Positions 1 to 27,549 of a stretch of DNA of 64,000 nucleotides are shown here, one piece after another. Below the pieces are notes generated by a model. The model saw only the letters and a list, made by a program, of their open reading frames with translations. It did not search any database and was not told where the DNA came from. Each line of letters opens with the position of its first letter. Position 1 is the stretch's first letter. Origin of the DNA: an uncultured delta proteobacterium (GTDB taxonomy: Bacteria > Myxococcota_A > Polyangia > Fen-1088); assembly GCA_963737265.1 (NCBI GenBank), contig CAVTRY010000008.1, positions 1,446 through 65,445 of the forward strand, read 5' to 3'. The position numbers and the translations under genes were made by a program.

Positions 1-162
1 CTTCACCCGTTGCACAACTTTCTCGCTGAACGGCTCCACGCCGTCGAGTAAGTCGCCAGGACAGAGAACCATCGTGCAGTCCATCTCACGAATGCGGGCG
101 AGGGCGCTATCGAGGCTGGCGACGTCGCCATGGATGTCCGAGAGGATCCCAACCTTGGTCAC
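1..162 (-). CDS. metallophosphoesterase, N-terminal part (gene runs off window start)
   Basis: Reverse translation is VTKVGILSDIHGDVASLDSALARIREMDCTMVLCPGDLLDG..., with D-x-H...GD metallophosphoesterase motifs. The GTG start overlaps the upstream stop (GTGA). Paralogue of 27361-27549. Confidence 0.6.
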   Translation of the reverse strand, partial: MTKVGILSDIHGDVASLDSALARIREMDCTMVLCPGDLLDGVEPFSEKVVQRVK

Positions 163-359
163 TTGGGCGGCTTTCGCTGGTCAATGAGCTTCCTCCGCTT
201 GCCGGCATCGTATTTGGCGAGCACTGCCAGCATTTCGCGCAAGTCGGCCTCGGCCTCATCTTTGGAATCACCGATGCCGTAGGCGCCTGGCACTTTTGGA
301 TCGTGTGCCGACCAGATGCCTTCTTCCTGGATGACAACTAGAGCGCGATCGTCCGGCAT
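159..359 (-). CDS. HicB-like (UPF0150) antitoxin-type small protein
   Basis: 66-aa reading MPDDRALVVIQEEGIWSAHDPKVPGAYGIGDSKDEAEADLREML.., taken from M31 of the 96-aa ORF. Its size and W.A..P..PG..G.G....EA pattern fit HicB-type proteins. Diverged paralogue at 27140-27364. Confidence 0.55.
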   Translation of the reverse strand: MPDDRALVVIQEEGIWSAHDPKVPGAYGIGDSKDEAEADLREMLAVLAKYDAGKRRKLIDQRKPPK

Positions 360-361
360 GC

Positions 362-543
362 TCACCGCAGTTTTTCCACGAGGATTGGCGCCTCTTCGTG
401 GATGAACTTCCAGATTTCTTCGGGCGTCGGCGGCTGCGGCCAGCCCCATGTGCCGGTTTCGTTATCGTCGCTGAATTCGTCCAGTCGCTCCCAATCGACG
501 CCGGGAAAGCGCTTTCGGGCCTCTGGCGGTTGGCGTTTGGCGC
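362..543 (-). pseudogene. DUF86/HepT-like protein, C-terminal half only (5' part replaced by repeat 544-680)
   Basis: ..[60 protein letters not shown] matches the C-terminal half of the 26818-27143 copy. The N-terminal part of the ORF (MGTYHDRAANLTGFLGPDGAFSSVF) is translation of the 140-bp repeat also found at 24536-24685. Confidence 0.5.
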
Positions 544-680
544 CGAAAACGCTCGAAAACGCCCCGTCAGGCCCCAGAAACCCGGTCAAGTTCGCTGCGC
601 GGTCGTGATAGGTCCCCACCTGATGCGGTCCGGCATGGTTCTCCGACGCTCAGAAAACCCCTTTGATTCGACTATGGTCC
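544..680. repeat. ~140-bp repeat, inverted copy of 24536-24685
   Basis: The reverse complement of 544-680 aligns almost base for base with 24536-24685, apart from one ~13-nt indel and a few substitutions. Confidence 0.85.
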
Positions 681-890
681 TCCCGGACGGTAGCGCATTC
701 GGATGTCGCCAGCCGCTGAGCGGATTGCTCAGTTTCCCTTACCGAGAAGCGGCCTGACCTGTCCGCGGGATTTAGGCACCAGACGGGACGACGGAAGGTA
801 TGCGCACACAGCTCGGCTGGGCGGGATGCTGAACTTCTACTACCGCGAGGCCGCATGACCATCGGCGATCGTTTACCGGACACCACGCGA

Positions 891-1844
891 TCAGAAGCAG
901 CAGCCGGTAACCGGCAGAGCCCAGCAGACTACGGTGCTGTCGGTTCTCACCGCGCAAGCTTCGCCGCCGGTACTCAGCGAAGTGAATATGCCCTGCGGGA
1001 CCGATGGTGGGTTCAATGCTGCCAGCCCCCAGCAAACAATTGTGCCGTCGGTTCTAAGACCGCATGCGGAACCCGTACCAACGCTGACCGAGGTGAAAGG
1101 ACCTCCGGGAATGCCACCTAGGACGCCACAAACCATCGAGCCGTCCGTCAGTATCCCGCAAATGTCGCTGTCGCCTGCGCTGACCGCGGCAAAAGAACCA
1201 CTCAAGGCGGTCCCTGCCCAAATTCCCCAGCAAGCCATACTCCGGTCCATGCGCAAGCCGCAGGCAAACCCATTGCCCGTGCTTACGGAGACGAACGTAC
1301 CCGAAGGCGAAGGAGGCGCCACGCCCCAGCAGGCGACCGTACCGTCGCCCCGCAGGGCGCAGGTACCAGAGCCCCCAGCACTCACGGCGACGAAGCTTCC
1401 GCCTGGCGACTCGATGTCGCCGGCCGAATCGTCGCCCCAGCATTCGATGCCGCCGTCGGTCTTCAGCCCACAGGCAAAGTCACCGCCTACACTAACCGAT
1501 GCGAACGAGCCATCGGGTGCGATCGCCTGGCCAACCTGATTAGCTCCCCAACAGGCAACTGTTCCATCGGTCTTAACTCCGCAGTCAGTGCCATAACCGA
1601 CGCTCACCGAAACGAAGGTCGCTCCGTCGGGCGGCCCCTGGATATAGGTGCTGCCGTCGAGGAGGCTACTTGGCCGCAGTAGATCCCCAGAAGTAGCAAG
1701 CGCAGTTTCGCCAGCGCCAGCGAAGGTGTCATGGACAAGAGAAGAAGAAGCGTCACCTGATGCGTCAGAACGAGTCCCAAGCGGAGGTGTACAGGCAAGG
1801 GTGAATAGCGCGAGCAAGACGGATCGTCTCATCGGTGTAATCAT
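891..1844 (-). CDS. RCC1/BLIP-II-type repeat lipoprotein
   Basis: N-terminal signal with lipobox (LLALFTLAC). Six or more repeats of the ..DG(T/S)(V/I)ACWG.. type, each followed by FxSVSxG..xxCG(L/V), typical of RCC1-like beta-propeller blades. Confidence 0.7.
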   Translation of the reverse strand: MITPMRRSVLLALFTLACTPPLGTRSDASGDASSSLVHDTFAGAGETALATSGDLLRPSSLLDGSTYIQGPPDGATFVSVSVGYGTDCGVKTDGTVACWGANQVGQAIAPDGSFASVSVGGDFACGLKTDGGIECWGDDSAGDIESPGGSFVAVSAGGSGTCALRGDGTVACWGVAPPSPSGTFVSVSTGNGFACGLRMDRSMACWGIWAGTALSGSFAAVSAGDSDICGILTDGSMVCGVLGGIPGGPFTSVSVGTGSACGLRTDGTIVCWGLAALNPPSVPQGIFTSLSTGGEACAVRTDSTVVCWALPVTGCCF

Positions 1845-2072
1845 AATAGCTTACGGTCGGGGAGCGACACCAATCAAGAGATTATTCTCCGCTCCGTCGG
1901 ACACGTGATGCCCTAGCATGAAGCAGCCCGACAATATGCCGCATCAGGTCAGGCCTGCTTTCACGAGAATGGAAAGCTCTCTCCGGTGTTCTGGGACTAT
2001 GCACGACGGGCCATTCCAAGCGACCTGCTGGGGTGGCCAAAGGCCTTCTCCTCGCTTTAGGTACGAAAGTAT

Positions 2073-4103
2073 TCAGGGGGTGCAACACAGAATAGCATGT
2101 GGGGCACCTGGGTAGCCGTCGGTTGAGTAATAGATCGTACTCAACCCTGCGACGTATTGGCCGCTCGGACATTGCCCTTTATAGAACGTATTGTCCCAAT
2201 CGGGACTTGAGTATCCTTGCGAATCACCTGAGTAGAAAATCTCCCGGTGACAGTTGTTGGTGGAGTGAGTAGTCACAGCCAACGGACAGCATAGCAACGT
2301 GTCCACATAGCCAGGTGTCGAGAAGTACGGGGCGGCATCTTGCGCAATTCCCTGTACGATTTCGTTCGGTCCACACTCTCCCTTTACAAAGCGATAGTCC
2401 CATTCCCCTGTATTTGTCGGCGGCACACGATTGTCTGCACCATGAAAGGACACTGCGTGACACTGGGAAGGCGTGCTCAATGTCTTACCAGCCGGGCCAC
2501 ACTGGACCGCATGTGCCTGGTTCGTTCCATTCGGGTACTTGGAAAGTCCGGTCACATAAGAACCTTGGTAGCACTCCCCTTTGTACTCGTACGGCGCCCA
2601 GTCGGCCGACAGCGGATTCCACTGGTACCCATAGTTCGTTAGCCAAAAGTTGCGAGGCGTGTTCCCAATATAAAAGGCTCCATTGGATGAATTGACTAAC
2701 CCGTACTCGACCGGATCTGTCGAACCTGTGCCGCTGGACTGGGTGCCTTGCCCTAGCACGAAGGTGTTGTCGGAGCCCTTGGATGTGACGACGAAGGAAT
2801 TGAAAAAGGACAAAGCTTGGCCGCTTCCCGAACGAGGGTCGGCCCCGCTCCCCATGCGCGTGAGCCAACTGGAATTGGTAGCCGGCATTTCCGCGATTTC
2901 ACCGCCAATTTGGAAACCGTCGGCTGAAGACTCGAAGCCACCACTGAAGTCGGACAGAGAAAAGTAGCCTAGCGTTCCCCCATAGGAACTCGGCTGCCCA
3001 GGATTAAACATGACATAGACGTACCACCCGGGAGGATTAGCCGAGCTGCTCCTGTAGATTTGGACCAACATTGATTGCTGAACTCCGCCTGGCACGCCCG
3101 TAGGAAGCAGAGCGTCTGGCGTTATAATGGAGGTTGTTCCCGGAAGTTGATGCCAGGTGAGTGTATTATGATATCCATTGTTTGTTGCGAGAACTTTGAA
3201 GTGCAGCTGGGTCGGCGCGCTTCCGTACTCTGTCGCGACCATCGAGCCGACCTCGATCGTCCTCATACAAGGAACGAGCGATTGCCCATTAGTGCCCACA
3301 GTCTTATCGTTATCGCAGGTATAGATCCCCTGCGTATTAATGCCACATCCACGCATCAGCCATAGCTGGGTTATGCTATGGTAGTATGTCACTTGTGGCG
3401 TTCCATAAGGAACCCCAGGCGTATATAGCATCCATTGTGTATTGGCTGTGGTAATACCATTGCCAGTGCCCCCCTGTTCCGAATTCTCCACGGCATGTAC
3501 ATACCCGGGAAGCTCAGGAAGGTCGGGGCATTCATAACCAGGCGTAGCAGGTGGGGCCGCGTGGCTCAAAGTTCTGTTTAGGAAAGCATCAAGTCCTCCG
3601 GCAGCTTGAATCTCCGCGAGGGTCTGGCGAAGAATGGGCACCGTCCCTTGCGGACAGACTCGGGGTTGGCCGTGGACGTCCGGGTATCCGTTGAACCAGA
3701 ATTCGTCTGAAGGTACAGGAGAAACGACAAGCAAACTCGTCACACTATCCGGCGGTTCGGGCGGCTGAGGGAGCACTGTATAGGGAGTTCCTTTTGCGGC
3801 CTGCACCTTGGCATCGGGCGTGGCGAAATAGTCCACGCAATCAATGGTCTCTCCCCCCTTGGTCAAGAAGGAATGTCTTATGTCGGCTGGGTGGTAACGA
3901 GCGTCTAGATACGTCTGAATCTTCGAGGTCTCCATCGGACTGAACGTCGAAGCGCTTGGCGTCTGACTTTGACTAGGTTGAGCGGTGGTTATCGGGCTCG
4001 TCACTGTGCTTCCCAGCTCCTGAAAAGGACGTTCGACATCGACACCGTCTGCCCTCGCTGCAAAACCCCGCTGCGCTGCTGAGCGACAATTACATCTCCC
4101 CAA
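2073..4103 (-). CDS. neprosin-like (DUF239, glutamic peptidase-type) domain protein with C-terminal Cys-rich repeats; probably 5'-truncated
   Basis: ..GGETIDCVDYFATPDAK.. resembles the neprosin activation-peptide motif (IDCVD), and ..TIEVGSMVATEYGS..LHFKVLATNNGY.. resembles the neprosin core. The C-terminus has three repeats of YKGEC/VKGEC/YKGQC ... LCC. The first ~30 codons of the ORF overlap an IS91 fragment (4011-4076). No signal peptide remains. The first internal Met is at 3935. Confidence 0.5.
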   Translation of the reverse strand: MGRCNCRSAAQRGFAARADGVDVERPFQELGSTVTSPITTAQPSQSQTPSASTFSPMETSKIQTYLDARYHPADIRHSFLTKGGETIDCVDYFATPDAKVQAAKGTPYTVLPQPPEPPDSVTSLLVVSPVPSDEFWFNGYPDVHGQPRVCPQGTVPILRQTLAEIQAAGGLDAFLNRTLSHAAPPATPGYECPDLPELPGYVHAVENSEQGGTGNGITTANTQWMLYTPGVPYGTPQVTYYHSITQLWLMRGCGINTQGIYTCDNDKTVGTNGQSLVPCMRTIEVGSMVATEYGSAPTQLHFKVLATNNGYHNTLTWHQLPGTTSIITPDALLPTGVPGGVQQSMLVQIYRSSSANPPGWYVYVMFNPGQPSSYGGTLGYFSLSDFSGGFESSADGFQIGGEIAEMPATNSSWLTRMGSGADPRSGSGQALSFFNSFVVTSKGSDNTFVLGQGTQSSGTGSTDPVEYGLVNSSNGAFYIGNTPRNFWLTNYGYQWNPLSADWAPYEYKGECYQGSYVTGLSKYPNGTNQAHAVQCGPAGKTLSTPSQCHAVSFHGADNRVPPTNTGEWDYRFVKGECGPNEIVQGIAQDAAPYFSTPGYVDTLLCCPLAVTTHSTNNCHREIFYSGDSQGYSSPDWDNTFYKGQCPSGQYVAGLSTIYYSTDGYPGAPHAILCCTP
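4011..4076 (+). pseudogene. IS91-family transposase C-terminal fragment
   Basis: Plus-strand translation SQLLKRTFDIDTVCPRCKTPLR matches SQLLKNTFEIDTVCPRCKTPLR of the intact transposase at 24731-26236. It is cut off by the IS21 left end at 4077. Confidence 0.75.
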
Positions 4104-4188
4104 AGACGACAGCTACGTCGCCCCGCTTTGAGGCGCGACGGTGACCGTGAGGTAGACCTCCAAGCCCGCAAGCGGGCAGGAGGCACCT

Positions 4189-5688
4189 TTGAAGCCGGTC
4201 ACCGACGCCCAAGTGAGGCGTTTGATGGAAGAGATGAGCAAGATTGGAAAAGTAGGCCAGGCCGCCATGAAGGCGGGCATGGACCGGAAGACAGGGCGGC
4301 GATACATCGCCGCGGGCAAGCTACCGTCGGAGCTACGGCAGCCGCGGTGGTGGCGGACGCGCCCTGACGCGTTCGCCGAGGACTGGCCAGCCGTGGCCAA
4401 GTTGCTGGAGGAAACGCCTGGGCTGGAGGCTCAGACGGTGCTGGAGCTGCTGGAGGCGAAGCAGCCAGGGCGGTACAACGAGAGCCATCTTCGGACAATG
4501 CAGCGGCGAATCCGTCGCTGGCGGGCCGAGCATGGTCCTGCGCGTGAGATTTGGTTCACGCAGGCGCATCGGCCCGGTGAAGCCGCGCAAACCGACTTCA
4601 CGTCGACGGCGGAGCTTGGTGTGACGATCGTGGGCCAGCTATTTGTGCACCTTTTGTGCGTGACGGTGCTGCCGTACTCGAACTGGCAATGGGCGACCGC
4701 GTGTCTGTCGGAGTCTCTGGCAGCGCTTCGGCGAGGGATCCAGTCGGCGCTGTTCCAGCTTGGGCGGGTGCCGCGATACCACCAAACCGACCACTCGACG
4801 GCGGCGACACATCAGATCGCTCGCGATGCGGAAGATCGCACTTTCAACGATGAATACAAGGCGGTCATGCGGCACCTCGGAATGGAGCCACGAACTACAG
4901 CCGTCGGGGCCAAGGAACAAAACGGCGATGTGGAGGCCAGCAACGGCGCGCTCAAGCGTCGGCTTGAACAAGCGCTGCTGGTGCGTGGCAGCCGCGACTT
5001 CGCGGACCAAGACGACTACGAACGCTTCGTAGCCAAGGTGGTCCGCAAAGCCAACGCTTCGCGAGGCCCGCGCGTCGCCGAGGAGATCGAAGCCATGCGG
5101 CCGCTGGTGGTGGAGCGTTTGCCGGAGTACGCAGAAATGACGGCACCTGTGGCGTCGACGAGCACCATCCGGGTCAAGTCGTGCGCCTACTCGGTGCCGT
5201 CGAGGCTGATCGGCGCACGGGTGAGAGTCCGCGTGTTCGAGCACCGAATCGAGGTGTACTACGCCGACAACTTGGAATTGGCCTGCGACAGGCTGCGAGG
5301 CAAGACCGCGCGCATCGACTACCGGCACGTCATCTGGTCTTTGGTGCGCAAGCCGGGCGCGTTTTCTCGCTACGTCTACCGAGAAGAGCTGTTTCCAAGC
5401 GTGACTTTCAGGCGGGCATACGACGCGATCCAGGCGACCAAGCCTGGAATCAAAGGCGACGTTGAATACCTGCGCATTCTTCACCTGGCCGCCAGCACGA
5501 TGGAAGCCGATGTCGAGCAAGCGCTCACGACTCTGCTTGCCGATGGGACCATCTTGACGGCGGATGCAACCAAGAAGAGATGCACACAGGCGACGGACAG
5601 TACCTATCCACCGAGCGTCCCCGCGCTCGAAGCACCGCTGGTCGATCTCGCGTCCTACGACCTGCTCCTCGAACAGGTGGCATCATGA
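4189..5688 (+). CDS. istA: IS21-family transposase IstA
   Basis: 499 aa with an N-terminal HTH and a DDE integrase core (..AAQTDFT.., ..YHQTDHSTA.., ..KEQNGDVEASNG..). TTG start preceded by AGGAGG. Followed by istB. Confidence 0.85.
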   Translation: MKPVTDAQVRRLMEEMSKIGKVGQAAMKAGMDRKTGRRYIAAGKLPSELRQPRWWRTRPDAFAEDWPAVAKLLEETPGLEAQTVLELLEAKQPGRYNESHLRTMQRRIRRWRAEHGPAREIWFTQAHRPGEAAQTDFTSTAELGVTIVGQLFVHLLCVTVLPYSNWQWATACLSESLAALRRGIQSALFQLGRVPRYHQTDHSTAATHQIARDAEDRTFNDEYKAVMRHLGMEPRTTAVGAKEQNGDVEASNGALKRRLEQALLVRGSRDFADQDDYERFVAKVVRKANASRGPRVAEEIEAMRPLVVERLPEYAEMTAPVASTSTIRVKSCAYSVPSRLIGARVRVRVFEHRIEVYYADNLELACDRLRGKTARIDYRHVIWSLVRKPGAFSRYVYREELFPSVTFRRAYDAIQATKPGIKGDVEYLRILHLAASTMEADVEQALTTLLADGTILTADATKKRCTQATDSTYPPSVPALEAPLVDLASYDLLLEQVAS

Positions 5689-6533
5689 CCAACGTCTCCG
5701 TAGACACGGTCAAGCCGAGCGCGCTCGACGCTCTGCTGGTGCTTCTGCGCGCGCTCAAGCTGCCTGCCTTCACCCGGCACGCCGAGGAGATCGCGATCAA
5801 GGCCAGCCGCGAGGGGTGGACCTTCAGCCAATACCTCCAGCACCTGGCCGAACTGGAAATCGAAGAGCGCCGAACCCGTCGCATCGATCGCGCGCTTCGC
5901 GATTCGGACCTTCCCACGGAGAAAACCCTGGCCACCCTGGAACGTGGTCGGCTGTCACCCAAGGTGATGAAGCAGATGGCGAGCCTGTGTGAGGGTGGCT
6001 TTGTCGAACGTGGGGAGAACCTGCTCGTCTTCGGACTGCCCGGCCGAGGCAAAAGTCACGTTGTGGCTGCCATCGGCCACGAACTCATCCGGCGCGGCTA
6101 CCGGGTCCTCTTCACGCCGACCTTCGCGCTTGTCCAGAGGCTGCTGGCCGCCAAGCGCGACCTTCGCCTGGAACGAGAACTGGCCGCGCTCGACATCTAT
6201 CACGCCGTGATCCTCGACGACATCGGCTACGTCCAGCAGAGCCGCGATGAAATGGAGGTCCTTTTCACCTTCCTGGCCGAGCGGTACGAACGCAAGAGCG
6301 TCCTCATCACCAGCAACCTGGTATTCAGCGATTGGATCCGCATTTTCAAGGATCCCATGACCACCGCCGCCGCCATCGACCGACTGGTCCACCACGCGGT
6401 CATCCTTGAGATGACCGGCCCCAGCTACCGCAGCGAAGAAGCACGAAAGAGAGGCGTCACCACCCCAGCGACAACTACGACAACTACCGATCAACCAACG
6501 ACAACTACCCCCGACAACAATGGGGCGATGTAA
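5685..6533 (+). CDS. istB: IS21-family helper ATPase IstB
   Basis: Walker A GLPGRGKSH and Walker B VILDDIGY, plus the IstB signature ..LITSNLVFSDW... The start at M36 of the ORF overlaps the istA stop (ATGA). Confidence 0.9.
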   Translation: MTNVSVDTVKPSALDALLVLLRALKLPAFTRHAEEIAIKASREGWTFSQYLQHLAELEIEERRTRRIDRALRDSDLPTEKTLATLERGRLSPKVMKQMASLCEGGFVERGENLLVFGLPGRGKSHVVAAIGHELIRRGYRVLFTPTFALVQRLLAAKRDLRLERELAALDIYHAVILDDIGYVQQSRDEMEVLFTFLAERYERKSVLITSNLVFSDWIRIFKDPMTTAAAIDRLVHHAVILEMTGPSYRSEEARKRGVTTPATTTTTTDQPTTTTPDNNGAM

Positions 6534-6569
6534 TTGACGTCACCGGGTGAATGTAGTTGACGTCCAGCA

Positions 6570-7213
6570 CCGAGGGACCGCGCGACACCGCGACACTGCT
6601 AAATGGGGGTGGTCCGGTGGGTTTCAATCCACGCGCGGGCCCGAGGGACCGCGCGACCAACCCTCGCAAGATTTCTCCACATGCTAAGAAGTTTCAATCC
6701 ACGCGCGGGCCCGAGGGACCGCGCGACCGAGCCTTCCGGCCGCCCGACAAGCTGCCAGGAGTTTCAATCCACGCGCGGGCCCGAGGGACCGCGCGACGCT
6801 CTGGCACGATCCCAGCGCGCCCTGATCAAGAGTTTCAATCCACGCGCGGGCCCGAGGGACCGCGCGACTTGCCCGAGTTTTTGCCCCGGCATCATGGGCT
6901 GGTTTCAATCCACGCGCGGGCCCGAGGGACCGCGCGACGAGCTGTCGTCGACGTGGCCGACCCAGCATTGATGTTTCAATCCACGCGCGGGCCCGAGGGA
7001 CCGCGCGACAGTTGAATGAAAGCGTCGGTGACTTCATGCACTTGTTTCAATCCACGCGCGGGCCCGAGGGACCGCGCGACACGGATCGCGACGATACTCT
7101 GGCAATGTCCAATCGTGTTTCAATCCACGCGCGGGCCCGAGGGACCGCGCGACCTGTTGGCGTCTACTCTGCTGGACTCGGGCGCAAGGTTTCAATCCAC
7201 GCGCGGGCCCGAG
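6570..7213 (-). CRISPR. CRISPR array, trailer-side segment (type I-C repeat)
   Basis: Composition: a 17-nt partial repeat (6570-6586), 8 full 37-bp repeats GTTTCAATCCACGCGCGGGCCCGAGGGACCGCGCGAC starting at 6621, 6691, 6761, 6832, 6902, 6973, 7044 and 7117, then a 25-nt partial repeat (7189-7213). Nine spacers of 33-36 bp. The minus-strand repeat ends ..GGATTGAAAC, typical of I-C. Confidence 0.95.
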
Positions 7214-7319
7214 TGTTGCCACGCAAACAGGCTGATGGGTTTGCGGTCCAGATAGCAGATGGGCATCGCGAAGGTGACAGGGTGCCTGTCACTTCCGTGA
7301 TGCCCATCATTGGGTCGGT

Positions 7320-7544
7320 TCAGAAGCAGTCGTCGTGAGGGCCGTCGGGGACAGATTCCCAGACGGCGTCAGGGGGCCTGGGTGTTTCGATCCCGCGCAA
7401 CGCCTGCAGGTCGGCGATGGCATCGCCATGGGCACGCCAGATGGCTGCGATGGCCCGCTCGAACACGTCGACGATGGTCAGGGCATACGATGCGTCCATT
7501 GGAGGCAGATGGATCTGGGCGTGTGGTGGCGGTGGGCGCCTCAT
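7320..7544 (-). CDS. small hypothetical protein (transposon cargo, translationally coupled to the TniB-like gene)
   Basis: 74-aa ORF whose start overlaps the TniB-like stop. No recognisable motifs. Confidence 0.3.
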   Translation of the reverse strand: MRRPPPPHAQIHLPPMDASYALTIVDVFERAIAAIWRAHGDAIADLQALRGIETPRPPDAVWESVPDGPHDDCF

Positions 7545-8356
7545 GCTGGATCCCTGGGTTCGGAGTCGACGATACGGGTGATGGCATCGCGCTCGACGAG
7601 TTTTCGCTTTCTGCGGGCGGCGTCGCGAAGGGCGGCGGTGGCGAGCCGGTCGAGGTCGCGCAAAGATCCGGCGGCGGCTTCGTGGAGCATGGCCAAGGCG
7701 TCGGCCGTGACAAGCTCGCGGTCGCAGCCTGATTGTTTGAGTCTGGAGCGAATGTAGTCGGCGGTGTCGTCCGGGGTCAGGGGCGCGACATTGAGCCGGG
7801 TGTAAATGCGCGAGTACAAGGATCGATTGCGACGGAGGACGAGCCTGTCGGAAAGTTCTGGCAGGCCGACGAGGACGAGGGACAGGAGCGCCCTACTGTC
7901 CCACTGGTAGTTCAGCAAAATGTGCAGATGATCCAGCATGTCTTGGTGGAGCAGGTGGGCCTCATCCAAGAGGAAGACCGGGTGAACACGCTCGCGGCCA
8001 AGATCTTCGACGTGGGAGGAGACGGCGAAGAAGAGAGCCGCGGCGGCGGCGGAAGGCGCGAGCCCCAAGGCGAGACAAAGCTGGCGATAGAAATCGCGGC
8101 GGCCGAGAGTGGCGTTGTGGCAGTAGGTCAGACGGAAACCAGTTTGCGGCAGCCTGTGGCGCAAGGCACGCAGGACGCAGGTTTTGCCGGCGCCGGGATC
8201 GCCAGTGAGGATAATGGACGCACGCTCATGGAGCGCCTCGCACAGCTCGTGTACCAGGGCCTCCTTGGAAGGCGGCATCCACAGGTCGACGTCGGCAATC
8301 TCCTTGGAGAAGGGGGCGCGTTCGAGGGCGAAGTGGCCGAGATAGGCAGGCGTCAT
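7541..8356 (-). CDS. AAA+ ATPase, TniB/ExeA-like transposition helper
   Basis: Walker A GDPGAGKT and Walker B VFLLDEAH. 271 aa. ATGA overlap with the upstream DDE transposase. Confidence 0.75.
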   Translation of the reverse strand: MTPAYLGHFALERAPFSKEIADVDLWMPPSKEALVHELCEALHERASIILTGDPGAGKTCVLRALRHRLPQTGFRLTYCHNATLGRRDFYRQLCLALGLAPSAAAAALFFAVSSHVEDLGRERVHPVFLLDEAHLLHQDMLDHLHILLNYQWDSRALLSLVLVGLPELSDRLVLRRNRSLYSRIYTRLNVAPLTPDDTADYIRSRLKQSGCDRELVTADALAMLHEAAAGSLRDLDRLATAALRDAARRKRKLVERDAITRIVDSEPRDPA

Positions 8357-17911: not shown

Positions 17912-17928
17912 GGGGGATCTCCTTGATG

Positions 17929-18339: not shown

Positions 18340-19878
18340 CGAATATCCCCTTTCCTTGTGGAATCCTTTGTACAAAGCACACGCGATGCCGAGGCACTTC
18401 TCCCATTCCCAGGGTTCAAGGCCAGGACGGTTGAAGACCCGGCGGCAACAGCTTGTGACGAGGTCGATCGGAATTGACAGACCGTCCACGATGCAAGGAA
18501 GCAGCCTTTCGACGGTTGCCTTCTTGAGTTTGTCGTCCAACCGTCGGCCGTAGGCGGCCTCCGCGATATCGCGCGGCGCGGGCGCACCAACAAATTTGGT
18601 TTCTTTGCCGAAGTTCTGGGGCCAGGCGAGGACGTCATGCCACGTTTGGATACGAACAAGGAACTCCGAGCCCTTGATCTCACGGTAGAACGTGATGGCC
18701 AACCGTCCTGTGGTCGCGGAATCCAACCCCATCACCACCACGTCATCGGTGTCACTTAGATTCGACCGATACCCAGCTATAGCGCGTTGAAGCCTGCGAG
18801 AGAACTCCTGCCCGACATCACCGACTTCGGCCGTCGGGCTGAGGGGATCCGGGGCATTTTGGTGTTGGTCTTCATTGAGAATATCCATTGTGTCTGCCCA
18901 AGGGTCGGGGATGGATTGGCCATTGACGGCCCACGCGACGAAGACCTGATCCCCGCTACGGGCTGCCTGCTTACGCCCGATTAGCCAGCGAAGGGCACTG
19001 TGCGCCTTCTGCGTGACTTCGAAGGAAACGCCAGCGGCCTGCGCGGCATTCGTGAAACGGCCAAGGAACGTGAAGCCGCTCGTGTCGTTGGCTGATATGA
19101 GCTTGGCCCGATCGGCGCTGTGGCGCAGTTTCTTGGGATGCTGCTCGGCCAATGCGGCGATGCGTCCGTCAACCTGACAGAGCCCCACGACAGACTGCCG
19201 ACTGGCGTAGAAGTCCTGCCAGGACCGAACCAGGTCGACATCCTCCCAGGTGCCGGTCGCCAGTTCGCCGTCACTTTCCACGCGCCACCTGATGAAAGCA
19301 TCTTCGGGTGCCTGCCCATTTGGGAGGCGCCTGAAAATTTCGGGCGCCTCTTCTTGCCCAGTCCATTCCTTGAGGAGCAGGGGCGGATCGGCCACGGGAT
19401 CAATCAATGGCAGGATTCCGGCGCCCACGAGGTCGGCGATGACATTTCCTCGCCCAACATAGGCGCTGATCGCCATCAACTTGGTCTGGCTGGGCGCAAA
19501 GGTAGTCCATCCTTCGAGAAGGTCCATGTAATCTGCACAAGGCGCTCCTGGGATCTTGGCGTATCCGGACGTGACCGTGCCGCCGTAGGTTCGGAAGTCC
19601 TTCGCGACGTATTGCAGGTTGTCGCAGAGAGGGTGTGTGGCGGGTTTGATGCCAGCTCGACCCGCAGAGTCCTCAGTGCATGGAATCAAGGTCTCCTGGT
19701 CATCTTTGGGGATGACCATCGCTCGCCGAAAGTTGCCTTCGCCATCGATCACGATTTCAATGTGCGCCTGCTGCGTGGTGTGCGCGATGGGCAAGAGCGC
19801 CTTGGCGTCCGGCAAATTCGAGCCAGCGCATCTCTCGTAGGTGTCGTAGAGCTTCTGCATCCAGGCCATGTCACGCAC
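17929..19878 (-). CDS. cas8c: Cas8c (Csd1), type I-C large subunit
   Basis: 649-aa ORF between cas5 and cas7, with size and position as in I-C operons. An alternative start is M4 at 19869. Confidence 0.8.
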
Positions 19879-20593
19879 CCCATTCGTCGGCTTCGACGGC
19901 CACTGGGTTCACATTCTCACCGACACCGAACCGCTTCGGGTTCATGTCGCGGACGAATTTGCGAATTGTGCACTCCTCGGGCCGGGGAAATCGCAGGGCA
20001 CCGTTCACCAGCTTTGGCATCCAGAAGCGTGCATGTAACTTCTTGTCGCCCGTCTCATCCGGATAGTCGAAGCCAAGAAACATCAGTCCGAACGCAAGCT
20101 CCCCGGCGCTGTCCAGATCCCCGTTGCCAGACCCGAACTCGCATGGCTCGACGTAGCCCTGGCAGTCTCGGGTGCCAAGGAAGATGTCTTGCCGTCCGCC
20201 CCGTTCCAGCATGCGTTGGGCGATGGCAAAATGCTTTCCGTCAACCCGGTCCTTGGCCAGGTCAGGTTGTGCCTCGTTCCATTCAAAGTGGGCCTGCACC
20301 TGGTATTCCACATCCGCGAGGAATGTGTAGATGGCCAGCGTATTGCCGCCGCCGTACTCCAGCGGCTTGCTTCCCTTGGTCTGCGTGCGGATCCGCTTCA
20401 TCACGCGCATCTGGTCGATGACCCACACAATGGTCGGCTTCCAGTAGATCGCCTTGGCGATGCCTTTCAGCGCCTCGTATGTCGGAATGTGGTACGAGCA
20501 CTTCTCGCCACCGATCTTGGTCAAGGGATCGGTGAAGAGCGCGTAGCGTCCCCAAGTCTTGAACTCAATCGTGTTTTTTTGCTTGTTCGACAT
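19871..20593 (-). CDS. cas5: Cas5d (type I-C, pre-crRNA processing subunit)
   Basis: From M45 of the ORF: [53 protein letters not shown].., a typical Cas5d N-terminus. Overlaps the cas3 3' end by 29 nt. Confidence 0.85.
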
Positions 20594-23063
20594 AGAGGAA
20601 TTCCCCCGGTGACACGGGCTCGGTGGAGAGCCCAAAGTCCCTGCTGTAGTAGCTTTCGTTGAGGTGGAAGATTTCTGTCCCTGGCTGAACTTCGCTAATC
20701 GCGTGCGCGTCCCTGAGCCGGTCAAACTCGTAGCTGAAGACGTTCACCGTGAATTGCTGTGCAGCACGCAGCAACCGGAATTGCTTTTCGACATCCGTCG
20801 CGGCGCATAGCCCTACGATGAGCTGCCGACCCTCCCCGTAAGGAACGACAACGCCTTTCGTTGGTGCATCGATGGCTTGGAAAGCTTCGTTTGCTGTTTT
20901 GAAGGATTGCCGAAAGTAGTTGGCCTTGCCTTGCTTGAATCCGGCCACTACCAGCGAGTTTGTGGACAGCATGTTCAACAGATCGTCGCCATGGCCTGCC
21001 TTGCTGGGATTGATTGGGTATCCCATCTCGTCCTTGCGAGCGAAGAAGTAGTTCTCGTAGAACCACGCCATGGCCTTTGGGGAAAGCAAATCGTTGTCGA
21101 ACCGCGCGGGATCGTCGCGGAAATCGTTGAGCACGCGTGCGGCCTTGTCCCGGGCTATGGCGATGTCTCGGAGTGAAGAGAGCGATTCCTCGGCCGGGTT
21201 GATGACGTGGACGAATCCTGACGGATTTCTTCCGTTTCGGTTGCAGCGGCCAGCGGCTTGCGCAATGGAGTCCAACCCCGCGGCAAACCGAATCACGCAT
21301 CCAAAGTCGACGTCTACGCCGGCCTCGATCAGCTGAGTGCTGACGCAGAGAGTACGCTCGTCATCAAGGAGCTGTTGACGAATCTTCGCCAGCGAGGACT
21401 TGCGGTGGGCCGGGCACATGCTTGTGCTGAGATGATGGGCCGGCAGGCCGGATCCCGTGACCATCTTGAACAAGGCACTTGCGGCTTTCTTGGTGTTCAC
21501 GACCACGAGGCAGCTTCCGGTGCGAGCGACTTCGGACTTGGCCAGGTCCGCGATATCGCGGTCATGCCAGCCGCCCGGCCGACGAGCATCCTTCACCTCG
21601 ACCCTTCGGAGTTTCGCGAAGGTGTCTTGGACGTCTGGGACGATTTCGCTTCCGAAGGTGATTTTCGCTGCGCCCTTCTTCTCGTCTACTTGGCCCAGCA
21701 GCGGTTGGGTCGCGGTGCAAAGGACCACCGTGCTCCCACCCTGCGCGGTAAGAAGGTTGATGGCGTTGTTGAAAAGGTGAATGCACCTGACCGGCAGGCT
21801 CTGGATTTCGTCGAAGATGATCACCGCTCGGGCAAGCTGATGCATGCGCCGGACACCTCGGGTGCCCCCGCCAAGAACAGCTTCGAGAAACTGCACGCTG
21901 GTTGTGTAAACCACAGGTGCATCCCAGTTCTCCGACAGGAGCTTGTTCTTCCAGCCTTGGTGCAGCGGCTCCAGGTTCGAGTGATGTTCCAGGACGACCT
22001 TGCCGCGGTCTTCTGGGCAGGAGTCAGGTTCAAGAATCCGACGGGCGACATCGGCGTTTTGGTCGATGATGGTGGTGAATGGCACCACGTAGATCACGCG
22101 ATCCAGGCCATGGGCACGGGCGTGATGAAGGGCGAAGCGAAGGCTGGCCAGGGTCTTGCCGCCACCAGTGGGGACGGTGAGAGTGAAGATGCCGCGTGGT
22201 CGGGATGCGGCTTGCCGACAGTGCTCGGAGATGTCCTGGCGAATGGCGTCGATCGGGTGTTTGGGCTTGAGCGTGATGAGATGTTCTTCGAGTCGATTTG
22301 CCAGGACATCCCAAGGCATGAACTCGCCATGCTGACGTTCTTGGGCGGCCCGGGGACGTTCGAAGTCGGCCGTATCTTCGCGGTCGGCATCGATCAAGCA
22401 GCTGAATAGAAAACGAACCAACAGTCCAAGCTGGAACTGGGCAACCTGGTTACTGTGGGACTTTTCTGGGGATCCCAGCGCGATGTCGCGGAGGTGTCCA
22501 GTGAAGGACGTGACGAGCGATTCATCCTGCAACAGGGTCGTTGCTCTTGCTCGAAGCCTTGGGTCGAGCTTGCCCAGGGATTCGTCAAAGTGAGATCGTG
22601 CCTCAGCTTTAAGCATCCTCCGGCTGAAGTCGTCGCGTGGTCCCTCGACCGGATCCGCCACCAAGCAGTCAATGAGCCCCGAATGATGGGATGCTATGCA
22701 AAGGGCCAGTGCTTGGCCCACGATGGGCCCCAAGGGACCAGCCTTGGTTAGCTCGTTCCATACTAACTTGGCACCTGCCGTCGAGTGGTCGACCTTACCT
22801 CTCTGCGCAGCCGGCACCTCGTCGTCACCGTCTGGGTTCTCCTTGCCCGTCACGCTTCGCAGGTAGTTTTGAAATGCATCGCTGTGTTTGCCGAGATCAT
22901 GAAGAAGCCCGATCAGCTCGCCGGCTGAACCAAGCCCCAGCTTGTTCGCCGACTGGGCGCATCGCCGGGCTGTTCCCTCAAGGTGATCGGATAGAGAGTG
23001 TTCCGCGCCATTGGACTCGCGCACGTGGGCGATCGGGGGGCGGCGATTCGCTTCCTTCTCCAT
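20565..23063 (-). CDS. cas3: Cas3 HD nuclease/helicase
   Basis: HD region (..[13 protein letters not shown]..; ..SHHSG..) and helicase motifs (TVPTGGGKT; IIFDEIQS; ..CTATQP..). Start set at M18 (MEKEANRR), just after the upstream gene's stop. Confidence 0.9.
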
Positions 23064-23073
23064 CCCCACCACC

Positions 23074-24126
23074 CTACGCCTCCCCTTTGTCACTACTGGA
23101 CAATGAATCGCCACTGAGCTCTGCCTCGATCTCCTCGACCGTGGGCAATCCGTCTTTCAGATCGGCGGGAAGGCTGGCGACGATCTTGGTCTCCCATTCG
23201 GCGACGCCGACGGGCTTTCGCAGGCCGCGCAGGGCGTATTCGGCGACCAGCTTGTTGCGCGAACGGCACAGCAGCAGGCCCACGCTGGGTTTGTCGTCGG
23301 GGTGGCGCAGCAGATCGTCGACGGCTGACAGGTAAAGGTTGATCTGGCCGACGTCGCCGGGACGGAAGGGCGTGGCTTTCAGCTCGATGACCACGTAGCG
23401 GCGCAGTTTCAGGTGATAGAAAAGCAGGTCGAGCAGGAAGGTTTCGTCGCCCACTTCCAAACGCACTTGGCGGCCGACGAAGGCGAAGCCCGAGCCCAGC
23501 TCCAGCAGGAAACGCTGAACGTGATCGACCAGCGCTTGCTCGACTTCGCGTTCGCGGCGCGGGTCGGCGGTACCCAGGAAATCGAAGAGGTAGGGATCTT
23601 TGAATACTTGGCTGGCCAGATCCGAATCCGCCGGGGGCAGGGTGTCCTTGAAGTTGTTGACGGCCTTGCCTTGGCGCTCGTGAGCGCGACCGTCGATCTG
23701 GATGGCCAGGATGTTGCGGCTCCAGCCATTTTGGACGCTTTGACGGATGTACCAGTCGCGAACGTTTCGGTCTTTGATACGTTGAATCAGCCGAACGACG
23801 TGTCCCCAAGGCAATTGTGAAACAAGCTGTTTCACCTTCTGCCTTTCCCGGTACGCATCCGCGAAGGCGCGCATGAAGAGCAGATTTCTCGGGGAAAGCC
23901 CCTTCATCTCGGGAAACGCAGCTTGCAGATCTGCGGCCAGACGATCGATGACGCGCGCGCCCCAGCCCTCGCGTGCCTGTCGATCGAGAATCACCCGTCC
24001 GATGTCCCAATAAAGTAAGACCATGGCCGAATTCGCGGCCAGAACGACACGCAGGCGTTCTTGCCGAACGCGGTCTTTGATTTCGGCCAGAGCCGCGGCG
24101 TAGTCCTTGGGAAGATCCGATCGCAT
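23074..24126 (-). CDS. DUF1016/YhcG-family PDDEXK-type nuclease-like protein
   Basis: ..LYWDIGRVI.., ..LPWGHVVRLI.., ..NGWSRNIL.., ..DPYLFDFLG.., ..GFAFVGRQVRLEVGDETFLLDLLFYHLKLRRYVVIELK.. is the DUF1016 pattern with a D...(D/E)xK-like core. Start set at M44 of the ORF. Confidence 0.7.
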   Translation of the reverse strand: MRSDLPKDYAAALAEIKDRVRQERLRVVLAANSAMVLLYWDIGRVILDRQAREGWGARVIDRLAADLQAAFPEMKGLSPRNLLFMRAFADAYRERQKVKQLVSQLPWGHVVRLIQRIKDRNVRDWYIRQSVQNGWSRNILAIQIDGRAHERQGKAVNNFKDTLPPADSDLASQVFKDPYLFDFLGTADPRREREVEQALVDHVQRFLLELGSGFAFVGRQVRLEVGDETFLLDLLFYHLKLRRYVVIELKATPFRPGDVGQINLYLSAVDDLLRHPDDKPSVGLLLCRSRNKLVAEYALRGLRKPVGVAEWETKIVASLPADLKDGLPTVEEIEAELSGDSLSSSDKGEA

Positions 24127-24488
24127 CGGGGCCACTGGGAACAGTGCCTCCTCGCGCGAGCGTCCGCGGACCATCCGGGCATCCCTACGGGGGCAAGCAG
24201 ATCTTCGGTCAGCATCAGGGCCACGACTTCGGTGGGATTCACGGGTATGGCCCACGAGCTCTCGCTGGTTTCGAGCAGTCGCCAGCGCCCGTCTTCGTTG
24301 GTCAGGGGAAAGCCTGCCTGCTGCAGGACTTCGAGGTCGCGGTAAAGAGTCCGCGTGGACTGCTTTTCCTCTAAGGCGTCCTTCAGCTCAGCGGCTGTCA
24401 TGCCACGCCTCGCGGCCTCAAGCGCACGCAGCAGCCGCCACTGCCGGATGAACTGCGCACCTCGATGGACAGGTCTGTCAGCGGTCAT
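23991..24488 (-). pseudogene. YafY/WYL-type HTH regulator, N-terminal HTH part only (probably truncated)
   Basis: ..FIRQWRLLRALEAARRGMTAAELKDALEEKQSTRTLYRDLEVLQQAGFPL..DGRWRL.. is a DeoR/YafY-type HTH. After ~110 aa the ORF loses similarity and runs into the DUF1016 gene. No WYL domain is seen. Confidence 0.45.
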
Positions 24489-24535
24489 GCCGCACCAGTG
24501 TACTCCCGGTCGGCCAGGTGCGATATGGAACGACG

Positions 24536-24685
24536 GGACCATAGTCGAATCAAAGGGGTTTTCTGAGCCGCGGAAATGAATGCCGGAGAACCATGCCGGA
24601 CCGCATCGGGTGGGGACCTATCACGACCGCGCAGCGAACTTGACCGGGTTTCTGGGGCCTGACGGGGCGTTTTCGAGCGTTTTCG
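24536..24685. repeat. ~150-bp repeat, inverted copy of 544-680; lies just 3' of the IS91-family transposase gene
   Basis: Direct alignment with the reverse complement of 544-680. It sits 46 bp downstream of the transposase stop, so it may be the ori-IS-side end of the IS91-family element. Confidence 0.85.
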
Positions 24686-24730
24686 AGCACGCGAGGCAGT
24701 CTACTCGATCCCGCCCTTGTCGACGTGCCG

Positions 24731-26236
24731 TCAGTTCAGCCAGTCTCCGCCCTCGCCACCAGATTGCGAGGGAGGCGGTCGTGCGGGCCAGAGTTTTGGC
24801 GCACAGGTGGGCAGGCCCATGGCCTTGAGGATTTTCTTGATGGTGTCCTCGGTCTCGATCATGGCGATGAGGCGCAGAGGTGTTTTGCAGCGAGGGCAGA
24901 CGGTGTCGATCTCGAACGTATTTTTCAGAAGCTGGGACCAGGAAATGTAGTGTGAAAGTGGCAGTGAAGGCTTGTCGTCTTCCTCGGGCGCGGCCACGGC
25001 GGCGACTGGGACGACTTGGCTGCGGAGGCTGGAGTGCGAGGAGATGACCCCCGAGTATCTGACGACATGCCGACGAGGAGGGGGAACCAAGGCCGCCAAG
25101 CGCGCAATAAGGGCGAGCGGCGCAAGGTCAACTGACGATGTGCCATCGGACCAAGGCCGCTTGAACTCCAGCCTCACGTGACCGTCGTCGAGGATCTTGA
25201 GGCGGTCGTTGGCCAGGGGCGGGCGCAAGATGTACTTGCACAGGTTCTCGCGACCCTTCTTGTCGTTGGCGGCGACCTTGGTCTGAGCATGCAGGTTAAA
25301 CCCGGCTTGCTGGCCGCATAGCTTGCCCTTGGCCACGGGAGTGGCGTCTGGGTCGAGCACGATACGCACGAGAGCGCGCTTGTGCGCAGGACCGGCGGGA
25401 GAGGCGCCAGCGGTGGCGGCGGCCAACAAGCGGGCCAGGAGCGGATCTTTGTCGCCCATGGTTTCGTCGGTGACGACGGTGACCTCACCGTCGCCGGGGG
25501 CGGTAACGAGGGTGATGACACCGCGACGCTTTAGGAAGCGGAGGATGCGCTTGCTGGCGCGCGCGACGATGGCAAGGACGTCCTGTTGGGCAAGTTCCGG
25601 CGCCGGGTGGAAGATGGGCGCACCGCCGTCGCGCCCAGGGGCGTAGCAGCCATCGAGCTGGAGGACATGAAAATGCGGTGAGAGCCGCAGGTCGCTGTTG
25701 GCGCGCTGGATGACAGTGACGGCGCCACACTCGCCGTCGGCAATACCCCGATCTGCCATGCGCTTGCGATAGTTGGACGCCACGGTGTCGATGAAGATGC
25801 GCAGGACTTGGCCGAGTAGTTTTCCGTCGAAGGCCAAGGGAAACCTCAGAGGGAAAGGCAGCGTAAGCACGAATTGTCGGATGGGCACTTCGGGCAGCAC
25901 GTGGTCGACGAGAGTCAGCGCCCCCGCGTTCATGCGTCTGCCGCCACAGCTCGGACAGAAACCACGACCTTTGCAGGACCAAGCCACCGCATACCGCTCG
26001 TGGCAGGTTTTACAGAAAAGTTGTGCGAAGCCCCGCGCCAAGATTCCACACCCTAGGAAGTCGTGCAGCTCGTCGGTGACGAAGCTGGGCAGCGTGCGGC
26101 CGTCGGACTTGTCGGTCCACTCCTGCTCGAAGGTCAGAAGATGCTGCTGGAGCACCTGGAAAAGGGCGGTCTTTTCCGGCTCCCGGCGGGCATAGGTGTA
26201 CCCGGTCGCAGGTTTTGCGCATGCCGCTGCCTCCAT
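24731..26236 (-). CDS. IS91-family transposase
   Basis: Zinc-binding N-terminus (CKTCHERYAVAWSCKGRGFCPSCGGRRM), HUH-type motif (SPHFHVLQLDG), ..LCKYILRPP.., and C-terminal CPRCKTPL. 501 aa. Confidence 0.85.
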   Translation of the reverse strand: MEAAACAKPATGYTYARREPEKTALFQVLQQHLLTFEQEWTDKSDGRTLPSFVTDELHDFLGCGILARGFAQLFCKTCHERYAVAWSCKGRGFCPSCGGRRMNAGALTLVDHVLPEVPIRQFVLTLPFPLRFPLAFDGKLLGQVLRIFIDTVASNYRKRMADRGIADGECGAVTVIQRANSDLRLSPHFHVLQLDGCYAPGRDGGAPIFHPAPELAQQDVLAIVARASKRILRFLKRRGVITLVTAPGDGEVTVVTDETMGDKDPLLARLLAAATAGASPAGPAHKRALVRIVLDPDATPVAKGKLCGQQAGFNLHAQTKVAANDKKGRENLCKYILRPPLANDRLKILDDGHVRLEFKRPWSDGTSSVDLAPLALIARLAALVPPPRRHVVRYSGVISSHSSLRSQVVPVAAVAAPEEDDKPSLPLSHYISWSQLLKNTFEIDTVCPRCKTPLRLIAMIETEDTIKKILKAMGLPTCAPKLWPARPPPSQSGGEGGDWLN

Positions 26237-26317
26237 GAAGGAGGATGTCGGTCAGCGGGGCACGGAAGTTGCGTGAGCCCCGCAGTGCTCTTGCTCAAGC
26301 CTTGCGGGGCGTTGTGA

Positions 26318-26440
26318 CCGCACCGTCTGAGCCGCTCGCTGCTCGACTTCGCCAAGCTGATGGACCGGTTCAACCGCGCCAACGTCGCGTTCGTGAGCGT
26401 GACCCAGAACTTCTCGACGGCCGATGCCATGGGGGGGCGC
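26318..26440 (+). pseudogene. serine recombinase catalytic-domain fragment
   Basis: [42 protein letters not shown] matches the ..DRLSRS...L...F...GV.FVSVTE.FDT...MGR.. block of resolvase/invertase-type enzymes. It lacks the N-terminal catalytic Ser region and is fused in frame to unrelated sequence. Confidence 0.6.
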
Positions 26441-26866
26441 CTGGGCGATTTTCTGCCCGAGAGCGGAATTGTGCTCGACGTGGGCTGCGGCTTCGGCGTG
26501 GCCGCGGCGTGGACCCTGGCGCGTTCGTCCGACCTGCGCGTGGTCGCGCTTGAGCCCGACGAGGACCGCGCCGATGTCGCGCGCTTCGTGCTGGGCGCGG
26601 CCGGTGAAGTGCATGAGGGCCCGGCGCCCGCGGACTTGCCCGAGGTGGCCGCGGCGGCGGTCTTGTGCCTCGATGTTATCCACCACCTCGACGACCAAGC
26701 CCTGGCCGCGACGCTCGGCCACCTGCGCCGGTGTCTTCCGCTTGCGGGCAAACTGGTGTTGCGGGCGACGGTGCCGGCGGGCAAGGGCAGGGCAGGCTCG
26801 GTGCGAGCCCTGCCTTTGGATTGCCGACATCGTCGAGGCTTGCCGACGGCTCACCAAACTCGTTGA
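26441..26866 (+). pseudogene. class I SAM-dependent methyltransferase fragment
   Basis: ..[23 protein letters not shown].. (motif I and post-I) and ..[18 protein letters not shown]... It has no start codon of its own and its 3' end is out of frame with the next gene. Confidence 0.5.
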
Positions 26867-27143
26867 GGGGGTGGACTTCGCCACCTTCGCCGCAGAATCA
26901 GACGCCGGCATCATCTTGAACGCGAATGCTCAGATGCACCTGTACCACCACGTGGGCGAAGGCGCCAAACAGCAATCGCCCGAAGCCCGGAGACGCTATC
27001 CCGGTGTCGACTGGGCTCGACTAGATAAATTCAGCGATGACAATGAGACCGGCACCTGGGGCTGGCCGCGCCCCCCAACGCCTGAAGAGATCTGGAAGTT
27101 CATCCACGAAGAGGCGCCAATCCTCGTCGAAAAACTGCGATGA
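26818..27143 (+). CDS. DUF86/HepT-like protein (start unclear, possibly 5'-damaged)
   Basis: ..[50 protein letters not shown].. fits the DUF86 N-terminal pattern, followed by ..[23 protein letters not shown]. No canonical start codon lies at the domain boundary. Confidence 0.5.
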
Positions 27144-27364
27144 GCATTTCAGACGATCGCGCTCTCGTCTTCGTCGAGGAAGACGGCTTGTGGTCGGCGC
27201 ACGACCCGGACGTGCCCGGCGCTTACGGCCTCGGTCCTACGCGCGAGGCCGCCGAGGCTGACTTGCGCATGGCCCTGGAGCTGCTGGCCGAGTACGAGGC
27301 CGGCGAGCGGAGGAAGAAGCTCATTGACGAGGACAAAGACCTCTTGCGAAAGCCGTCCGAGTGA
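27140..27364 (+). CDS. HicB-like (UPF0150) antitoxin-type small protein
   Basis: 74 aa, [42 protein letters not shown]... Overlaps both neighbours (ATGA/GTGA). Diverged paralogue of 159-359. Confidence 0.55.
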   Translation: MSISDDRALVFVEEDGLWSAHDPDVPGAYGLGPTREAAEADLRMALELLAEYEAGERRKKLIDEDKDLLRKPSE

Positions 27365-27549
27365 CCAAGGTTGGGATCGTCTCGGAAAACCACGGCGACG
27401 TCACCAGCCTCGACAGCGCTCACGCCCATATTCGCGGGATGGGCTGCACGATGGTTCTTTGCCTTGGCGACCTACTCGACATCGAGCCCTTCGGCGAAGA
27501 ACTCCCCGCGGCCGACGGCGAGCGGGTGCCTAGCCTCGTCGAATGGTGA
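27361..27549 (+). pseudogene. metallophosphoesterase, truncated to 62 codons
   Basis: MTKVGIVSENHGDVTSLDSAHAHIRGMGCTMVLCLGDLLD.. then a premature stop. The paralogue at 1-162 reads on beyond this point. Confidence 0.55.

Follow-up and report, generated by a model that had tools for sequence, protein, structure and literature searches.

Inverted repeats around a type I-C CRISPR-Cas locus of an uncultured Myxococcota genome as predicted ends of a dispersed IS91/ISCR-like element

The IS91/ISCR group of insertion sequences (ISs), which includes IS91, IS801, IS1294 and ISCR1-type elements, consists of rolling-circle elements with HUH Y2 transposases. In IS91, the terIS end lies at the left, beside orf121 and tnpA, and the oriIS end lies at the right, with the target tetranucleotide adjacent to it (PMC13181058). 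Transposition starts at oriIS and ends at terIS; termination fails in 1-14% of cases, co-mobilising adjacent DNA, and in rolling-circle elements of the family the DNA that is mobilised lies past terIS, on the upstream side of the transposase (PMC13181058). The transfer path expected for a family member would begin at oriIS, pass through the transposase gene and continue to terIS and past it. Here we examine a stretch of 64,000 nt (the window) from contig CAVTRY010000008.1, positions 1,446 to 65,445, of an uncultured delta proteobacterium (GCA_963737265.1; Myxococcota_A, Polyangia, Fen-1088), in which a type I-C clustered regularly interspaced short palindromic repeats (CRISPR)-Cas locus lies between inverted repeats of ~140 bp. 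A sequence-only reading of this DNA had proposed that the segment between the repeats, 680-24536, is invertible or was captured by one-ended IS91-type transposition.

The repeats themselves were readily confirmed, far beyond chance, by BLAST and by a repeat search over positions 1-30000. By BLAST, 544-680 is the reverse complement of 24536-24685, with 90% identity over 150 nt; the longest exact stretch between the two copies is 77 nt. The repeat search resolved this match, which BLAST merges, into the arms 544-652/24577-24685 (109 nt, 96%) and 629-697/24519-24587 (80%). The right copy has a private insertion of ~13 bp at about 24570-24583. Further inverted pairs were found at 189-544/26961-27316 (356 nt, 79%), 43-177/27346-27480 (86%) and 4011-4076/24872-24937 (91%).

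We looked for other copies of the ~140-bp sequence in the organism's own genome (25 contigs, 6.55 Mb; contigs are given below as C8, C11 and so on, C8 being that of the window). There were about 30 BLAST matches, and 26 oriented copies could be aligned. They are dispersed in unrelated contexts, always as the end of an IS, and this dispersal speaks largely against regarding 680-24536 as a unit. The 3′ end of a transposase gene is directly contiguous with the repeat in 23 of the 26 aligned copies and is partly kept in one more; the other two, the left window copy and C13:257881, are solo ends without a transposase. All 26 terminate in ...CCTATGGTC, a few of them as ...ATGGCC (across copies, the terminal letters are ATGGTC followed by C or A, or ATGGCC). 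Since the sequences beyond this common end are unrelated, it represents the true terminus of the element. Thus, the ~140-bp inverted repeats are the predicted oriIS-side termini, 3′ of the transposase gene, of a multi-copy IS91/ISCR-like rolling-circle IS. The proposed tie between the repeats and IS91 holds in that the repeats are IS91-family ends; the idea of 680-24536 as a unit, invertible or captured by IS91, found no support. In some ori ends, the terminal 15-30 nt are re-duplicated in tandem (e.g., ...CTATGGTCCCTATGGTCC...; C12:46105-46292, C19:9996-10183, C14:431074-431261).

The transposase gene near the right repeat, correctly recognized as IS91-family in the sequence-only reading, is the open reading frame (ORF) 24731-26236 on the reverse strand; 46 bp separate its stop codon from the repeat's inner edge. 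Its product matches Y2_Tnp (82 bits, cut-off 20.9) and Zn_Tnp_IS91 (55.7 bits, cut-off 26.3), and an HFHVL (HUH) motif is seen in the translation. The NCBIfam model for ISCR clade Ia (NF052416) aligns over nearly its full length (E 2.7e-89), scoring 300 bits against a cut-off of 925, and the IS91 equivalog model (NF033538) scores 89.8 bits against a cut-off of 125. As both scores fall under the curated cut-offs, the protein is a divergent IS91/ISCR relative rather than an equivalog. Its close relatives occur only in uncultured Myxococcota metagenome-assembled genomes (MAGs) from soil and fen, with more distant ones in a few Fibrobacterota MAGs.

Other characters of the element also resemble those of the group. 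Its two ends are unrelated in sequence and lack terminal inverted repeats: terIS, with a subterminal hairpin (7-bp stem, z -2.2 versus shuffles), lies upstream of tnpA, and the conserved ~140-bp oriIS end lies downstream. A short GGTC/GTCC-like motif is conserved at the ori junction, comparable to the GTTC, CTTG and GTCC targets of known members, and may be part of the target or of the IS. As described below, neighbouring DNA appears to have been carried on the terIS side only. Unlike the described members, this element, from an uncultured Myxococcota MAG, is new, falls under both NCBIfam cut-offs and lacks orf121; its putative cleavage sites and target tetranucleotide come from copy alignments, and its transposition is read from footprints. 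Folding of the whole ori end as single-stranded DNA gave no gain in stability over shuffles (z +1.5 to +2.4). We found no direct repeat around the right unit and no Rfam family in 1-30000.

Comparison of copies defined the following features at the two repeats.

544-680, forward strand: solo oriIS-side end without transposase; inner edge at 544, authentic outer terminus ...CTATGGTC at 679/680, aligned with 25 other copies.
24537-26287, reverse strand: intact IS91/ISCR-like element; oriIS end at 24537, tnpA at 24731-26236, terIS end with subterminal hairpin at ~26287; boundaries by copy comparison.
26288-26793, forward strand: 506 bp carried past terIS, containing a methyltransferase fragment (Methyltransf_25 match), which appears to have moved together with the IS.

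The right element has close counterparts elsewhere in the genome. Positions 24939-26793 are 99.9% identical to C14:427533-429387, and 25707-26464 are 99.7% identical to C12:19733-20490; past these shared ter-side stretches, the three loci diverge into differing DNA. Copy comparison places the canonical ter (upstream) boundary at about 26278-26287. Because the shared sequence runs past this boundary to 26793, the transposed unit here is 24537-26793, the IS plus carried DNA. The extra 506 bp would have been picked up past terIS by one-ended transposition. Pfam gave no support for a resolvase fragment within the carried DNA. Past the ori end, 24278-24536 matches C23:541145-541403 at 99.6% identity, precisely up to the IS terminus and no further.

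For the left copy, C12:30281-30418 and C14:431080-431210 are matches at 100% identity. Since it is identical to these copies but only 90% identical to the right copy, the window copies are not each other's source. They appear to be separate family members, not a pair made together. The left copy resembles the solo or orphan ends that result from IS decay, as all that is left of it is one authentic terminus, joined to a neighbouring gene that is truncated. Its transposase, its terIS end and 167 bp of the adjoining gene may have been lost in a deletion by illegitimate recombination, at a junction where 1 nt of microhomology is visible. It differs from other solo ends in that, for a rolling-circle element, nicking of a lone oriIS in trans is conceivable; such a nick would mobilise what lies on the inner side, here the left module. 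Just outside the left oriIS terminus, 780-858 on the forward strand is a 26-codon remnant ending ...RLGGMLNFYYREAA* that by eye resembles the C terminus of an rve-type transposase.

The direction in which these elements mobilise DNA could be read from the flanks of the copies. Stretches past the ter boundary, anchored at that boundary, are common to copies over 29, 43, 117, 186, 199, 515 and at least 800 bp. No shared flanks past the ori terminus were found among the aligned genome copies. Because sharing between copies is confined to the terIS side, it bears the mark of one-ended transposition, and the genome-wide pattern in this uncultured Myxococcota MAG reads as a clear footprint of that process. 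The IS91/ISCR-like copies with 29 to at least 800 bp of ter-side sharing but differing oriIS flanks include C14:450906, C23:543304 and C23:1715.

From inner to outer edge, the left end of the window reads from 544 to 680 on the forward strand, and the right end reads from 24685 to 24537. As these readings are opposite, each oriIS terminus points toward the other, with the CRISPR-Cas segment past oriIS in both cases. The 24 kb between them is thus on the side that neither element can mobilise, and the gene modules that flank the repeats are on the cargo (terIS) side of both. We consider it very probable that two separate IS91/ISCR ends, one belonging to an intact element and the other a solo remnant, face each other across an accessory I-C locus on their non-mobilised side, and that this arrangement is neither a transposon nor a programmed switch.

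The flanking genes occupy the outer sides of the two ends.

1-177, reverse strand: left metallophosphoesterase, N-terminal part; continues upstream of the window, and its translation matches Metallophos_2 homologues.
159-359, reverse strand: left HicB-like small ORF, 66 aa; 62% amino acid identity to the right copy; a homologue of the N-terminal domain in the HicB-like/metallophosphoesterase fusion ORF of relatives.
362-544, reverse strand: left gene X, last 60 codons, cut at 544; 88% amino acid identity to the right copy.
26794-27143, forward strand: right gene X, C-terminal 116 codons; no start codon, cut by the IS unit, with homology to the C11 copy up to the junction (CEPC motif).
27140-27364, forward strand: right HicB-like small ORF, 74 aa; 85% amino acid identity to the C11 paralogue versus 62% to the left copy.
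27361-27549, forward strand: right metallophosphoesterase remnant; family homology ends at ~27503, codon 48 (four-paralogue alignment), with a weak Metallophos_2 match.

As described previously, the two modules are inverted and diverged (we find 79% nucleotide identity), and the left repeat is fused into a gene, with the junction at 544 inside it. The earlier name of this gene, DUF86/HepT-like, is weakly supported. Neither window copy has a Pfam match, and the full-length C11 paralogue matches the HepT-like family (PF01934) without significance (E=0.063); the RX4HXY motif was not recognised at its expected position in the translation. We call it gene X. It encodes ~290 aa, and the window pieces called DUF86-like are its C-terminal part; full-length versions are found at C11:909231-910490 and in the relative G001 (L010:5308-6187). 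The left truncation lies 167 bp deeper in the gene than the right. The small ORFs called HicB-like, a name we keep as a label, have no significant Pfam family match. The metallophosphoesterase assignment stood, as the full-length homologue in G001 matches Metallophos_2 (71.1 bits, E 1.3e-19; calcineurin-like, YfcE-like). Four relatives (G001, G008, G010 and G012) carry a two-gene operon, gene X followed by a HicB-like/metallophosphoesterase fusion of 310-390 aa, so that what had been described as a three-gene module has two of its genes as one ORF in relatives.

The genome holds at least four copies of the module (two on C8, one each on C11 and C21), and both window modules read as truncated debris of this dispersed operon family. 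Their relationships are mosaic. The left and right gene X C termini are mutual closest relatives (88% amino acid identity versus at most 52% to all others), the right HicB-like ORF pairs with C11, and the left metallophosphoesterase part is nearer to C21 (90.5% versus 81% nucleotide identity). The left metallophosphoesterase gene is also frameshifted outside the window (frame break at C8:1031-1625). A GTTC at the far end of the right module was considered as a pseudo-terIS and dropped, being within chance expectation at a boundary that is undefined to the nucleotide. The degenerate C21 module adjoins two nested repeats resembling miniature inverted-repeat transposable elements (C21:79476-79848; about 170 and 190 nt), which have dozens of copies, 97-100% identical, on most contigs.

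The module is found beside IS91 elsewhere. In G008, a 5.2-kb duplication (99.9%) spans gene X, the HicB-metallophosphoesterase ORF, a 1.4-kb spacer and IS91, and G001 is arranged alike; in both genomes, the module faces IS91 in the opposite sense to the window. In G010 and G012, the module has no IS91 nearby. The association of module and IS91 is thus recurrent, not universal. Transposase copies are also dense in one part of G008, where positions 1-131000 of its own contig C9 (loci L008, L009 and L013-L023) hold at least 12 (94% amino acid identity) within 130 kb on one strand.

Between the two oriIS termini, Pfam bore out the gene calls of the sequence-only reading: RCC1_2, Neprosin, IS21 IstA/IstB, an rve plus AAA_22 transposon, the cas operon, DUF1016/YhcG and a helix-turn-helix (HTH) remnant. 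Besides the RCC1-repeat and neprosin-like genes (681-4075), the interior comprises the following features.

4011-4076, forward strand: third IS91 remnant, 66 bp of transposase sequence from a second subfamily, abutting the IS21 element; 91% identical to window 24872-24937.
4076-6569, forward strand: IS21-family element, istA and istB (Pfam and NCBIfam).
6570-14857, reverse strand: type I-C CRISPR array of 66 repeats, split by a 3.5-kb rve/AAA_22 transposon at ~7214-10700.
15040-23114, reverse strand: cas2-cas1-cas4-cas7-cas8c-cas5-cas3 operon, type I-C (Pfam).
23074-24542, reverse strand: DUF1016/YhcG gene and HTH remnant of a WYL-type regulator (Pfam).

This interior would best be described as an IS-riddled accessory type I-C CRISPR-Cas locus. 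The IS21 element is present at more than 20 genome loci at 99.7-99.9% identity by BLAST, and the IS91 fragment at 4011-4076 is 100% identical over 64 nt to C14:444817-444880 and to three other copies. The last 389 bp of the array transposon (10313-10701) recur at C14:391313-391701 and its last 116 bp at C15:149792-149907. Both recurrences directly abut the left end of an IS21 copy, with junctions that differ, and may bear on the odd junction between IS21 and CRISPR at 6569/6570. Spacers compared with the genome itself and with the fetched loci gave no match to IS91, IS21 or the array transposon.

The composition of the interior is equally mixed. The genome average GC content is 0.634, and that of the cas operon is 0.596. 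The segment 681-4075 has a GC content of 0.572 and a tetranucleotide correlation of 0.744, below the 5th percentile of 3-kb genome windows; the interior insertion sequences are typical of the genome. A compositional boundary had been suggested as a check on the segment, and the GC and tetranucleotide profiles revealed no single step at the repeats.

At the right side of the interior, the HTH remnant is homologous to a full WYL-WCX regulator that lies upstream of cas3 in G012, and a full paralogue is present at C18:278864-280015. The regulator remnant and the start of DUF1016 (23940-24536) form a patchwork: apart from the stretch matching C23 described above, 24179-24508 is 89% and 23940-24187 is 99% identical to the full-length WYL-type regulator locus at C18:278864-280340. 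That C18 locus adjoins an apparent second cas operon (ORF starting MSAQFLQIHTLTS). From the transposase gene and its ori end through the HTH remnant and DUF1016 to the entire cas operon, everything points the same way on the reverse strand (23074-26236), with no terminator-like site on this strand in between. Scans for sigma-70 promoters and terminators around both ori ends were negative for the strand concerned. Transcripts from the IS could conceivably run on into the cas operon, the more so with the WYL regulator truncated.

We compared the locus with 12 MAGs of the same genus, one of which (G012) has a homologous I-C system, with 66% amino acid identity in Cas8c. The order in G012 is array, cas operon and full WYL-WCX regulator, in a neighbourhood unlike that of the window, and a search for IS91 in the G012 genome gave no match. 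The HEAT-like gene flanking the window locus is 44-50% identical at the amino acid level in same-genus MAGs. In no relative do the module and the kinase/HEAT-like operon that borders the right module here occur on one contig. The contig itself extends 1.4 kb beyond the window at its left flank.

Several points weigh against our explanation. The relatives available are distant MAGs, at 44-66% amino acid identity too far removed for fine synteny. Both modules touch IS91 in the same way, with truncated gene X toward terIS, which is unlikely for two fully independent insertions; the same arrangement occurring twice implies that the two have some history in common or that landing is not random. Divergence of the modules amounts to 16-27%, while the IS parts are 90-100% identical to other copies; given this mismatch, a single origin of IS plus cargo would require that the IS parts were replaced or gene-converted afterwards. 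Finally, the deletion behind the left solo end is one that we infer and do not observe. The modules would most likely be old IS91-linked passengers, or else the elements landed beside two old paralogues.

The alternative that survives best concerns the origin of the modules. One ancestral unit, consisting of oriIS, tnpA, terIS, truncated X, the HicB-like ORF and the metallophosphoesterase, may have inserted twice in opposite orientations, after which gene conversion or re-insertion renewed the IS parts and the transposase of the left copy was then lost. We regard this as possible but doubtful; it refines the explanation of two separate ends and does not compete with it. The identical relative arrangement on both sides fits such a unit, as does the mutual closeness of the two X C termini. 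In addition, both window copies have lost the linker that elsewhere fuses the HicB-like part to the metallophosphoesterase, the right metallophosphoesterase is cut at codon 48, as expected of the far end of a carried piece, and the G008 module was duplicated together with IS91, with G001 arranged alike. Set against this, the truncation points of X differ (26794 versus the equivalent of 26961), and a methyltransferase fragment lies between the right terIS and X, in a unit 99.9% identical on C14. The closer ties of the right HicB-like ORF to C11 and of the left metallophosphoesterase to C21, and the reversed orientation of module and IS91 in G001 and G008, likewise argue against it.

A broader combination of these elements strikes us as unlikely. 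Here, the operon of X and HicB-like/metallophosphoesterase would be a recurrent passenger or preferred landing site, two units would have landed head to head on either side of the accessory type I-C locus, their facing oriIS ends, with 77 nt in exact agreement, would let homologous recombination flip the locus occasionally, and the right element may read through into the regulator remnant, DUF1016 and the cas genes.

Still less probable is that RecA-dependent recombination between the inverted IS ends passively flips the 24-kb segment, or produced the present arrangement. The arms would permit it, sharing 77 nt exactly and 109 nt at 96%, and a flip would break nothing, as the repeats lie in non-coding or pseudogene DNA. 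Yet the repeat is not long, a 13-bp indel sets its two copies apart, no known switch architecture is apparent, and the assembly has one orientation, with the alternative junction nowhere else in the genome. The 34-nt left junction had no match in Joint Genome Institute (JGI) metagenome contigs, hence there was no independent assembly to compare for the inverted form, and exact-protein look-ups of the RCC1-like and DUF1016 genes for independent assemblies found nothing on record. As for a programmed switch, we detected no recombinase or invertase domain in the ORFs tested across 1-30000, and since there is no invertase, the 24-kb segment is not such a switch; its supposed recombination site is an IS end present in 26 copies.

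That the CRISPR-Cas region was captured or moved by one-ended IS91 transposition, or that the two ends form a composite transposon, is highly improbable: one-ended transposition appears clearly active in this IS lineage and the I-C locus is accessory within the genus, but cargo is always found on the terIS side and the segment is past oriIS in both copies, the inverted polarity of the ends offers no route from ori to ter across it, the interior is a mosaic in composition, and G012 has a homologous locus in a genome without IS91. The likeness to IS-flanked or transposon-borne CRISPR-Cas systems, such as composite transposons and CRISPR-associated transposons, is that the locus is bracketed by inverted copies of one IS; it differs from them in the wrong polarity of the ends, one end without a transposase, the mosaic interior and the lack of any sign that the block ever moved.

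The attractive idea of this CRISPR-Cas locus as a transposon or a switch is thus unsupported, and we have removed it from our account. In rolling-circle elements of the IS91/ISCR type, the polarity of the ends decides which side is movable, and the CRISPR-Cas locus here is on the wrong side; its bracketing by common IS ends is an ordinary finding. The analysis documents an ISCR-like element, with clear footprints of one-ended transposition, from uncultured Myxococcota of soil and fen; this has modest interest for understanding ISCR gene capture outside the clinical Proteobacteria.

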